Below, one piece after another: positions 11,615 through 14,983 of a DNA stretch of 64,000 bases. Both the position numbers and the translations under genes were made by a program. Each line of letters starts with the position of its first letter. Position 1 is the stretch's first letter. The stretch is taken from NCBI GenBank assembly GCA_021782495.1, contig JAJXUV010000001.1, forward strand, positions 182,637 to 246,636, read 5' to 3'. Under the pieces are notes generated by a model. That model was not told the origin of the DNA, did no database searches, and was given only the letters and a program-made list of their open reading frames with translations. This DNA comes from Pseudomonadota bacterium (GTDB lineage Bacteria; Pseudomonadota; Gammaproteobacteria; UBA1113).

Positions 11615-12927
11615 TCCAAGGAACGCGCTTTGGTTTCAGGTAGAAAGAAATAACAAAATACAAATCCTAAAATACAAACACTCGCATACAATGAGAAAGT
11701 CCACACCACACCGAAATACGATAAAATAGATAAAAAACTTGCGGCAACTATAAGATTAGCGGCCCATTGGATCGCAGTGACAATACTCATTGCAAATCCT
11801 CTGCATTGCAAAGGGTAAATCTCTGCAATGATAACCCAAAACAACCCCCCTATTCCCAGGGAATAGCCTGCAATGTACGTGATCATCAAAAATAGCAATC
11901 CTATTTTTGCTTCTTCTCGATGCACTACATTGGCTAAACCACAACTCAGCAATAATAAACTGACACCTGCAATCGCAAATCCATAAAGCAATAAGCGACG
12001 GCGCCCCAGTTTATCGACACACAATAAAGCGATAATACTCATCAAAGTATTGACCACTCCCATAATGAGCGTCGCAAAAATAGACGCTGTCGTACTTTCA
12101 AAACCCAATTGATTAAATAAAATAGGGCCATAATACATCACGGTATTAATCCCTACAAATTGTTGCAAAACACCCAATACCACACCGATCATCAAAACTT
12201 TACGCCAAGGTTGATAGAATAAATCACGCCATTTAAATTCTGTTCTATTTAAGGTATCCGCTATTTCTTCAAATTCACTGTCTATATCGGTATGGCCTCG
12301 CAATCGACTTAAGGTTTTTTTAGCTTTTTGAACTTGACCTTTCAATACCAACCAACGCGGTGAAGTGGGTAGCAATAAAAGTCCTAAGAGCAACAGTACG
12401 GCTGGAATCAAGCCCGAACCCAACATAAGACGCCAAGATTGGGTTTGCGCTAAACCATAATCCACCAAAAAAGAAATCGCTTCTCCACTGGTGATCATAA
12501 CCACACTCAATAAAACCAATGCGCCCCGTTTATTCGCGGGTGCCATTTCAGAAATAAATAAAGGCGTAGTATAAGAAGAAATTCCAATGGCCAATCCAAT
12601 GATTAAGCGCCCTAGCATCAAGATCCACACTTGCCAAGCCATCATGGCCAATATCGTACCGACGATGAAAAATAAAGCGGACAATAACAACATGAAACGG
12701 CGTCCAAAACGATCGGCTAAGAGGCCACTGCATAAAGCACCTAACAAAGCACCTAACACCACACTCGAAACCACCCATTCTGAATAGAGCGTATTCAATG
12801 CGAAGGTATCTTGTATGAAAATAATCGCTCCCGAAATAACGCCGGTATCATAACCAAACAAAAACCCACCTAGAGCTGCAATAGAGGCTACCACCCATAA
12901 AAAATAACTCTCTTTAGTATCAACCAT
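11581..12927 (-). CDS. MFS transporter, sugar-porter family
   Basis: 12 TM segments, GRR motifs, PTSPRW and PETKARSLEWIQ signatures of sugar:H+ symporters. Confidence 0.8.
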   Translation of the reverse strand: MVDTKESYFLWVVASIAALGGFLFGYDTGVISGAIIFIQDTFALNTLYSEWVVSSVVLGALLGALCSGLLADRFGRRFMLLLSALFFIVGTILAMMAWQVWILMLGRLIIGLAIGISSYTTPLFISEMAPANKRGALVLLSVVMITSGEAISFLVDYGLAQTQSWRLMLGSGLIPAVLLLLGLLLLPTSPRWLVLKGQVQKAKKTLSRLRGHTDIDSEFEEIADTLNRTEFKWRDLFYQPWRKVLMIGVVLGVLQQFVGINTVMYYGPILFNQLGFESTTASIFATLIMGVVNTLMSIIALLCVDKLGRRRLLLYGFAIAGVSLLLLSCGLANVVHREEAKIGLLFLMITYIAGYSLGIGGLFWVIIAEIYPLQCRGFAMSIVTAIQWAANLIVAASFLSILSYFGVVWTFSLYASVCILGFVFCYFFLPETKARSLEWIQKAWRLSK

Positions 12928-14983
12928 CTACCCATCCTTGGTAAACGCAATGCGCCTCACCTTCCATCCAAACTGAAGCCTTAGGATCGGACCAATGAAT
13001 CACCAATTCACCGCCAGGTAATTGCACCTTGACAGGACTGTGACAATCGCCATCGCGAATGGCAATCGCTGCTGCGGCACAAGCACCACTGCCACAAGCC
13101 AAAGTTTCACCCACCCCGCGTTCGTAAACACGCAAAGCCAATTGATGCATATTTAAAATTTGCATGAACCCAACATTAGTTTGTCTTGGAAAATCTGCAT
13201 GCAGGCAAAGGGCTTGTCCGACGGTAGCCACCGACGCATTTTCCAGATCTTGCACTTTCAATATGGCATGCGGATTTCCCATGGATAAAGCTGAAAATCG
13301 ATGCATTTCGCCCTTTAAGACAATATCGTAATGTGTTTGTGCTGCTCTGTTTAAAGGCACCGCTTCTGGAAGAAAATTGGGACAACCCATATCCACAGTA
13401 AAGCGATATTCTGAAAGCCTTTTGACAGTGCTAACCCGATTGCCCGTTTTCAAATAGATGGCTTGCATCGGATCCACTTTACTGTTCATACAAAGATATA
13501 GGGCCACTGCACGTGCACCATTTCCACATTGTTCTGCCTCAGTACCATCGGCATTGTAAATGCGATATTCAAATTGATTCGCATCGTGTTTTCGAATCGC
13601 CAACAGTTGATCAAACCCAATACCTGTATAGCGATTCGATAATTTTTTGATTTTTTCTTCACGCCACAGAGAGGGATTTTCATCGAGATCCAACAAAACA
13701 AAATCATTGCCCAAAGCTTGCATTTTAACAAAAGCGTGGGGTTTTTCTGGAAGCAATAAATCCTGGACTGTTTCACGTCGACGAATCAAGGTAGCTTTAT
13801 TCTTATAAACCAAGATTTCTGCGGCACGTCCCCGCGCATTGTACTGAGAACTCATGCTAAAACCATATGCACCTACAGTGCGTATGGCAATGAAATCTCC
13901 GGGCTGAATCGCAAGCAATCTCGATTTCCCCAGAAAATCGCTGCTTTCACACACGGGTCCCACCAAATCTACCAAAATTTCTTTTTGCTGCGTTTTTTTC
14001 ACCGGAATGATTTTATGATGCGCATCGTATAACGCCGGACGCATTAAATCTGTCATGCCTGCATCTAAAATCGCAAAGGTTTTGCTTTCCGTTTCCTTCA
14101 AATATTCTACTTTTGCCACTAAAATACCGGTATTGGCCACGATCACGCGACCCGGCTCCAACCATAAGGTCAAAGGATAAGGCGCTTCTTGTTTTAAGCG
14201 CGTTAAAATCGCATCAGCATAGGCTGTTAGCGTCGGTGGATTTTCTGTATCGTAACACACCCCTAAACCGCCGCCGATATCAAGGTGTTCCAAAAAAATC
14301 CCTTCTTTTTTTAAAGACTGTATCAATTGCAAGACACAAGTCAAAGCTTCTTCGAAAGGTGTTAATTCCAAAATTTGCGAACCGATGTGACAAGCGATAC
14401 CGACGGCTTTTAATGCCGGTAATTGTTGGATGGTTTTATAAACGGCAAGCACTTCATTTTTATTAATACCAAATTTATTGCTGGCCAACCCCGTAGAAAT
14501 ATAAGGATGCGTATCGGCTTTAATGTCAGGATTGACACGCACTGCCACTGAAGCGATTTGTCCGATCGATTGCGCAATTTCGTTGATGCGTTCTACTTCA
14601 GGAAGTGATTCCACATTAAACACGGCAATGTTTGCGATGAGTGCTTGTCGAATTTCGCTTTCGGTTTTTCCCACACCTGAAAATACGATTTTTTGTGGAT
14701 CGGCACCCGCTTCCAAAACTCGTGCCAATTCACCTCCAGACACAATATCAAAACCAGCGCCCAAATTCGCCAATATTTTTAAAAGACTCAAATTGCCATT
14801 GGCTTTCACCGCATAACAAATGCGATGTGGATGTTTTTTGAAAGCCTCTTCTATGACACGCCAGTGTCGTTCTAAAGTTTGTTGGGAATAAACGTAACAA
14901 GGTGTACCATATTGCTGAACGATCTCACTCACCGAAACTTCTTCGGCATACAGTGTATTATCCTTATAGACGAAATGATCCAT
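12920..14983 (-). CDS. lysA-dapF: Bifunctional fusion: diaminopimelate decarboxylase (LysA, N-terminal) plus diaminopimelate epimerase (DapF, C-terminal)
   Basis: N-terminal Orn/DAP decarboxylase motifs (CYAVKANGNLSLLKILANLGAGFDIVSGGEL). C-terminal DapF motifs (GNDFVLLD, CGNGARAV). 687 aa, roughly the sum of both enzymes. Confidence 0.85.
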   Translation of the reverse strand: MDHFVYKDNTLYAEEVSVSEIVQQYGTPCYVYSQQTLERHWRVIEEAFKKHPHRICYAVKANGNLSLLKILANLGAGFDIVSGGELARVLEAGADPQKIVFSGVGKTESEIRQALIANIAVFNVESLPEVERINEIAQSIGQIASVAVRVNPDIKADTHPYISTGLASNKFGINKNEVLAVYKTIQQLPALKAVGIACHIGSQILELTPFEEALTCVLQLIQSLKKEGIFLEHLDIGGGLGVCYDTENPPTLTAYADAILTRLKQEAPYPLTLWLEPGRVIVANTGILVAKVEYLKETESKTFAILDAGMTDLMRPALYDAHHKIIPVKKTQQKEILVDLVGPVCESSDFLGKSRLLAIQPGDFIAIRTVGAYGFSMSSQYNARGRAAEILVYKNKATLIRRRETVQDLLLPEKPHAFVKMQALGNDFVLLDLDENPSLWREEKIKKLSNRYTGIGFDQLLAIRKHDANQFEYRIYNADGTEAEQCGNGARAVALYLCMNSKVDPMQAIYLKTGNRVSTVKRLSEYRFTVDMGCPNFLPEAVPLNRAAQTHYDIVLKGEMHRFSALSMGNPHAILKVQDLENASVATVGQALCLHADFPRQTNVGFMQILNMHQLALRVYERGVGETLACGSGACAAAAIAIRDGDCHSPVKVQLPGGELVIHWSDPKASVWMEGEAHCVYQGWVDG

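Follow-up and report, generated by a model that had tools for sequence, protein, structure and literature searches.

Diaminopimelate decarboxylase (LysA) and diaminopimelate epimerase (DapF) act where the routes to lysine and to the cell wall part, and both have been much studied as targets for antibiotics and herbicides. Both parent enzymes act as homodimers, and meso-diaminopimelate (meso-DAP) is itself a branch point, also needed by MurE for peptidoglycan. Here we describe a gene in which the two enzymes are joined, in a 64,000-nucleotide stretch of DNA (the window, analysed at its full length) from a Pseudomonadota bacterium (GenBank assembly GCA_021782495.1, contig JAJXUV010000001.1, positions 182,637 to 246,636). 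The closest described arrangement is the ancestral gammaproteobacterial operon lysA-dapF(-xerC), which has lysA before dapF and is described as lacking lysine regulation (Price, Arkin and Alm, 2006; PMC1480536). The fusion keeps this gene order as its domain order. Unlike the operon, it is one open reading frame (ORF), and the usual downstream partners are replaced by a major facilitator superfamily (MFS) transporter, with proS upstream.

Two other known systems likewise combine two lysine or peptidoglycan-precursor activities in one polypeptide, LysC-LysA (NF006515) and the Chlamydia DapF/glutamate racemase (NF038284), although their partners and mechanisms differ. Neither model accounts for the window protein. 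The aspartate kinase/DAP decarboxylase model NF006515 scored 243 bits against a cut-off of 802, with only its LysA part (model positions 499-859) matched, and the Chlamydia DapF/MurI model NF038284 scored 87.5 bits against 350; murI is a separate gene in the window. No model for a LysA-DapF bifunctional protein was returned from NCBIfam release 20. A literature search, which left most subscription journals outside its coverage and so gives no proof of absence, found no description of a LysA-DapF fusion; it returned instead the LysC-LysA fusion, horizontal transfer of dapF and lysA into insects, and unrelated fusions.

The gene matches exactly the single 687-residue LysA-DapF ORF of the original prediction, and the junction, which had been expected at about 13.7 kb, lies at 13733-13750. 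Its features are as follows.

12920..14983, minus strand: the lysA::dapF fusion ORF, with an ATG start, 687 amino acids and one terminal stop (ORF listing)
13751..14983, minus strand: LysA domain, residues 1-411, predicted pyridoxal 5´-phosphate (PLP)-dependent meso-diaminopimelate decarboxylase of fold-type III (TIGR01048)
13733..13750, minus strand: inter-domain junction of about six residues, 412-417 (P-E-K-P-H-A), set by the ends of the domain models
12923..13732, minus strand: DapF domain, residues 418-687, predicted PLP-independent two-cysteine diaminopimelate epimerase (TIGR00652)
14804..14806, minus strand: codon of Lys60 (YAVKAN), the predicted PLP Schiff-base lysine (sequence)
13526..13528, minus strand: codon of Cys486, which lies in QCGNGAR and corresponds to the catalytic Cys73 of Haemophilus influenzae DapF (sequence and alignment)
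13094..13096, minus strand: codon of Cys630 (ACGSGAC), equivalent to catalytic Cys217 of H. influenzae DapF (alignment)

At the sequence level it is confirmed that one polypeptide comprises a complete LysA and then a complete DapF, with no stop or frameshift between them. Both NCBIfam equivalog models match end to end and far above their cut-offs: TIGR01048 (lysA) at 529.5 bits against 297.9, with residues 7-411 on model positions 5-414 of 417, and TIGR00652 (DapF) at 246.9 bits against 114.65, with residues 417-683 on model positions 2-266 of 270. In Pfam, Orn_Arg_deC_N covers residues 36-283 and Orn_DAP_Arg_deC residues 29-371, followed by two DAP_epimerase repeats in the C-terminal part. 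When aligned to individual LysA and DapF enzymes of solved structure, as had been proposed, each half pairs over its full length, residues 1-409 with Vibrio cholerae LysA (3n2b) and residues 418-685 with DapF residues 3-272 (of 274 in H. influenzae, and also in Escherichia coli).

Each half thus reads as an ordinary member of its family. The LysA half has the length, motifs and predicted fold of the stand-alone, dapF-linked gammaproteobacterial type (TIGR01048; V. cholerae 3n2b, Psychromonas 4xg1), and its 411 residues share 50-54% identity with solved LysA structures and as much as about 61% with unfused LysA proteins from metagenomes. Unlike a stand-alone LysA, it lacks the last four or so residues and the stop, and the chain runs straight into DapF. 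The DapF half resembles the stand-alone enzymes (TIGR00652; H. influenzae 1bwz/2gke, E. coli 4ijz, Pseudomonas aeruginosa 8qzy) in both cysteines, in Y681 and in predicted fold; unlike them, it is without its own initiator methionine and first two residues. It is also the more diverged of the two: even the nearest free DapF shares only about 47% identity with it.

The residues expected of working enzymes are in place. All of the LysA motifs YAVKAN (K60), CHIGSQ, GGGLG, EPGR, CESSD and GAYG are present in the window protein, and across the 17 fused homologues of our alignment A1 they are invariant apart from K60, which is conserved in at least 90%. Lys60 is the predicted PLP lysine, and the roles of the other LysA motif residues are those general to the family. 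In the DapF half, N426, N477, C486, N570, N603, E621/R622 and C630 are invariant in the same alignment, and N426, N477, N570, N603 and E621/R622 align to the H. influenzae enzyme, in which the substrate-binding set is Asn11, Asn64, Asn157, Asn190 and Glu208/Arg209. The original prediction had named GNDFV as one of the catalytic cysteine motifs, and this is wrong: GNDF (residues 425-428) has no cysteine and contributes N426, the counterpart of Asn11, and the catalytic pair is C486 in QCGNGAR and C630 in ACGSGAC. At least 90% of the fused homologues retain Y681, the counterpart of Y268 at the E. coli DapF dimer interface; the E. coli Y268A mutant is represented by PDB entry 4ik0. Against the closest relative (Nei-Gojobori method, at an unsaturated dS of 0.37), dN/dS, the ratio of nonsynonymous to synonymous divergence, comes to 0.080 in the LysA half and 0.124 in the DapF half, so that each is under strong purifying selection. 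On these grounds, both halves look functional.

Structure prediction agrees. An AlphaFold2 monomer built on the 17-sequence alignment, and so carrying no information on a dimer or oligomer, reached a mean pLDDT (predicted local distance difference test) of 81.7 and a pTM (predicted template modelling score) of 0.58, with pLDDT below 50 at residues 409-414. In this model, the fusion is predicted to fold as two well-formed domains, a TIM barrel plus beta-sandwich for the LysA half and the two-domain pseudo-symmetric fold for the DapF half, with no confident prediction of their mutual orientation; given the low linker confidence and the pTM of 0.58, the two domains are independent in the model. 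In Foldseek comparisons, the predicted LysA part gave a target-normalised TM-score of 0.92 to 3n2b, at a root-mean-square deviation of 2.6 Å, and on the same scale the predicted DapF part matched 8qzy and 6d13 at 0.91-0.93. No PDB chain spanning both domains was found in the Foldseek search (TM-score normalised to the query at most 0.56).

The fused gene is not confined to one assembly. Seven contigs, drawn from NCBI, ENA and Logan assemblies, encode an identical fusion protein, and not one of the gene's 2064 nt differs between the window, L005 (ENA) and L006 (Logan, from a separately named run). A single intact ORF is also found in the relatives L010 (92.7% amino acid identity), L007 (73%) and L009 (62%). 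The fused architecture extends over 17 clusters at 90% identity, spanning 100% to 48% identity to the query, and all of P0001-P0014, the closer group, keep the junction pattern '...IRRRETxxDLLxHE-QK-xPFVKMQALGNDF'. A concealed frameshift or stop at the junction, which was to be checked for, is therefore excluded, as far as identical assemblies and intact ORFs in diverged relatives can exclude it, and we consider the idea effectively refuted.

How widespread is the fusion? When HMMER was run exhaustively over 1.84 billion representatives of 50%-identity clusters, 10 of the best 150 matches, which were those examined, proved to be full-length collinear LysA-DapF fusions (35-64% identity), the others being ordinary LysA proteins of about 415 residues. 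These 10 fused clusters are a lower bound, and weaker fusions would rank below the matches listed. The order was LysA then DapF in every fused protein seen. A search with the DapF half gave free DapFs and no fused protein, and is unusable for counting fusions or for the reverse DapF-LysA order. The statement that LysA and DapF are normally separate enzymes is true, but the fusion is not unique to this locus: no fewer than 10 of the 50%-identity clusters have it, and it has arisen several times.

Those origins can be read from the relationships of the two halves. The group that includes the window protein (P0001-P0013) is nearest to other fused proteins in both halves. In contrast, P0015-17, P0129 and P0130 (in both halves) and P0131-133 (in the LysA half) are nearer to unfused enzymes than to any fused one. 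In neighbour-joining trees, the window clade was monophyletic in 100 of 100 bootstraps for both halves, and all fused proteins taken as one group in none of 100. By Fitch parsimony, the LysA tree needs 10-12 changes and the DapF tree 5-7. The trees of the two halves thus call for 5-12 independent gains; the fusion is rare but recurrent. One of the distant fusions, P0016 in L008, is an independent event in a different gene context.

The junction itself suggests how the window gene arose. In unfused relatives, 13 residues follow the LysA 'RxRE' and 11 precede the DapF 'GNDF', 24 in all. The window protein has 20 residues between the two motifs, about four fewer than the unfused termini combined, from which it appears that the LysA tail, the stop, any spacer and the first DapF residues including the methionine have been replaced by a four-residue K-P-H-A bridge. 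In L001, lysA and dapF are separate adjacent genes; this locus came from a scan of a genome collection by exact peptide words, which returned four distant loci, the window's own genome not among them. Several distant fusions retain a relic of the DapF N-terminus behind a translated spacer, as in P0017 ('...GGANAMLIRFTKMHGLGNDF') and P0015 ('...AINMPISFIKMQGLGNDF'), with the relic DapF start of P0017 lying in '...NAMLIRFTKMHGLGNDF'. That domain order equals gene order is what a small deletion or the loss of a stop codon would yield.

We therefore favour the following course of events. Starting from the ancestral operon with lysA directly upstream of dapF, a small deletion in the ancestor of the clade would have taken out a few codons at the end of lysA, its stop, the spacer and a few codons at the start of dapF. 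About six residues would then link a complete LysA to a complete DapF, and the fusion would have been inherited within a Legionellales-like clade that bears a Dot/Icm secretion system. Judging by family membership, the DapF domain would interconvert LL- and meso-diaminopimelate by means of Cys486 and Cys630, and the PLP-dependent LysA domain would decarboxylate meso-DAP to L-lysine. The fusion enforces co-translation of both domains at 1:1 stoichiometry, and it is plausible that it brings the active sites near each other. In our judgement the protein is very probably a genuine bifunctional enzyme whose fusion formed in situ. Tight gene packing most likely gave rise to the fusion as a by-product, nearly neutral or mildly advantageous, and in other lineages it turns up again wherever lysA and dapF are adjacent.

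Some considerations weigh against this reading. Recurrent fusion, together with long retention under purifying selection, could reflect a real benefit such as channelling as opposed to near-neutrality. The six-residue linker may not let both homodimer interfaces form. A free DapF made from an internal start at Met421, which we think unlikely, would also count against it, and no other DAP-pathway genes and no murE were found in the annotation of the 64-kb window.

One such benefit would be selected substrate channelling, in which meso-DAP would pass from DapF to LysA directly or by proximity, raising lysine flux or protecting the intermediate. The two domains would carry out consecutive reactions, the linker is very short, and the 5-12 gains have been retained across deep divergence under purifying selection. 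We nevertheless regard such channelling as doubtful. The AlphaFold2 model has no confident inter-domain packing, and the domain order mirrors the gene order, as expected from stop-codon loss with no selection for geometry. Linkers also vary widely among independent fusions, with 53 to 73 residues from GAYG to GNDF, and 109 in P0002. The last of these, a relative 71-77% identical to the window protein, tolerates a 171-nt in-frame insertion (57 amino acids, GC content 39%) exactly at the junction, in the linker, found in two Logan assemblies:

L011, 4240-4410: linker insertion of P0002
L012, 2814-2984: linker insertion of P0002

Just one reading frame is open in this insertion, which might be an in-frame mobile or palindromic element. 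Finally, meso-DAP is also a peptidoglycan precursor, and a tight channel would starve the cell wall; since meso-DAP must also reach MurE, a sealed substrate channel in the fusion is unlikely.

A related idea is that the repeated LysA-then-DapF fusions reflect a real functional gain, such as a higher-order assembly of two obligate-dimer domains that partitions meso-DAP between lysine and peptidoglycan or, in this intracellular lineage, a self-contained salvage module that turns host- or prey-derived LL- or meso-DAP into lysine without the upstream pathway. We consider a gain of this kind fairly improbable. With only six residues to tether them, two C2 dimers may be driven into one particular assembly, either closed or of higher order.

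There is a slim chance that the gene yields two products, the full-length fusion and a free DapF from Met421, so that expression of the epimerase, which is essential, would be partly uncoupled from LysA. Met421 (KMQALGNDF) is conserved, and the cell wall depends on dapF even if lysine is provided (PMC1480536). However, Met421 sits in the universal DapF motif KMHGLGNDF, which makes its conservation uninformative, no Shine-Dalgarno-like sequence precedes it, and a start there would drop the residues equivalent to DapF 3-5.

It is very unlikely that one half is dead or re-purposed, with LysA as a mere scaffold in a host-dependent lysine importer or the DapF-like domain acting on another amino acid. 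Intracellular bacteria often lose amino-acid biosynthesis, and relatives with variant substrates exist, such as the O-ureidoserine racemase 7vdy and the D-ornithine/D-lysine decarboxylase 6n2h. Yet both halves score far above the equivalog cut-offs and match far better there than to the variant families, each catalytic and substrate-binding motif is unchanged across the fused homologues (or, for K60 and Y681, at least 90% conserved), and dN/dS is about 0.1 in both halves.

An assembly or sequencing artefact, in which a missed stop or frameshift merged two genes at the junction, is barely conceivable: lysA and dapF are separate and adjacent in most bacteria and the window stems from a metagenome-type assembly, but the same 2064 nt recur in separately named ENA and Logan assemblies and the same protein on seven contigs, the ORF is intact in relatives differing at 7-38% of residues, this clade has no methionine where the native DapF start would sit, and the residues at the junction are too few for two separate termini.

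The fused gene lies in a co-directional, tightly packed array, panB-panC-proS-lysA::dapF-MFS transporter-DUF2520-GNAT-maf, in which its immediate neighbours are these.

14993..16492, minus strand: upstream proS, an archaeal/eukaryote-type prolyl-tRNA synthetase (TIGR00408, proS_fam_I, 516.6 bits)
14988..14993, minus strand: Shine-Dalgarno-like GAGGTG with a 4-nt spacer to the fusion ATG, overlapping the proS stop (from the sequence; putative function)
11581..12927, minus strand: downstream sugar-porter family MFS transporter (TIGR00879, 386.7 bits)

Only 9 nt separate proS from the start of the fusion, and the two are probably co-transcribed; at the other end, the MFS transporter ATG overlaps the fusion by 8 nt. 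The order proS-fusion-MFS is kept in the relatives L007, L011 and L012. L010 keeps the fusion-MFS adjacency, its upstream gene being cut by the contig end, and L009 has proS nearby. Taken together, relatives at 63-93% identity share the junction and, for the most part, the gene neighbourhood. The proS beside the fusion differs from the usual bacterial type of prolyl-tRNA synthetase, and its adjacency to the fusion is kept in L007, L011 and L012. A promoter and terminator scan gave counts at background and nothing at the junction, and an Rfam scan of the window gave no RNA genes (no 16S rRNA, other rRNA or tRNA) and no lysine riboswitch near the fusion.

The source can only be called an uncultured Legionellales-like gammaproteobacterium. 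The window GroEL is at most 78% identical to database proteins (the query itself was not among the matches), and its best named relative, at 76%, is from a 'Legionellales bacterium' metagenome-assembled genome. The original prediction had called the bacterium host-associated, and this has indirect support: IcmJ/DotN scored 225.5 bits against a cut-off of 100, but IcmE/DotG (330 against 750 bits) and IcmG/DotF (88 against 200), though best matches, fall below their cut-offs. A host-associated lifestyle is a reasonable reading of this secretion system, which is its sole basis. The Dot/Icm genes are split over two places, 1054-4751 and 22419-26079, both on the minus strand.

1054-4751, minus strand: IcmG/DotF-like gene and short 452-residue IcmE/DotG-like gene (Dot/Icm type IVB), plus an unassigned 386-residue ORF
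22419-25439, minus strand: 1006-residue ORF adjoining icmJ, with no NCBIfam or Pfam match
25453-26079, minus strand: IcmJ/DotN, above cut-off

By its size and its position beside icmJ, the 1006-residue ORF could be IcmB/DotO. In L007, near the fused gene, a 778-residue protein at 90-2426 (ENA sample ERZ27236847) has faint ankyrin-repeat matches, which would fit a eukaryote-interacting lifestyle, and several related fusion-bearing species co-occur in that sample.

Two further loci in the window concern metabolism.

26162-31068: mevalonate cluster, with isopentenyl diphosphate isomerase (minus strand), then hydroxymethylglutaryl-CoA reductase, two GHMP kinases (mevalonate/phosphomevalonate kinase-like) and diphosphomevalonate decarboxylase
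53095-54078: murI

The mevalonate cluster looks complete, which is unusual among gammaproteobacteria; the pathway is also present in Legionella and Coxiella. The presence of murI indicates that peptidoglycan is made. Elsewhere, a low-GC island at 54000-58100 (35% against about 43% elsewhere) holds ORFs of 935 residues (55232-58039, plus strand) and 151 residues with no NCBIfam match at E <= 1e-10, and is a candidate for a horizontally acquired or effector gene. At 48746-50107 on the minus strand lies a 453-residue metallo-beta-lactamase/beta-CASP ribonuclease-like protein, for which the best models, Cas14 of type VII CRISPR (clustered regularly interspaced short palindromic repeats; 411 against 800 bits) and archaeal aCPSF1 (289 against 580), scored far below their cut-offs; no CRISPR context was seen, and it is probably a stand-alone beta-CASP nuclease.

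The fused architecture is an ordinary metabolic fusion of neighbouring genes for consecutive steps, in which adjacent operon genes have fused again and again with their order kept. It would cause a specialist no great surprise. Its recurrence, the branch-point intermediate and the dimer-dimer geometry nevertheless make the fusion biochemically worthwhile: it bears on how two obligate homodimers fit into one chain, and with a natural single-chain DapF/LysA one can ask whether flux at a branch point changes with proximity. Fused proteins are already in public databases, where they are named for one activity ('diaminopimelate decarboxylase' or 'dapF, partial'; P0003, P0014, P0007). With such single-activity names, the second step would be wrongly counted as absent when pathways are reconstructed for these uncultured intracellular bacteria.

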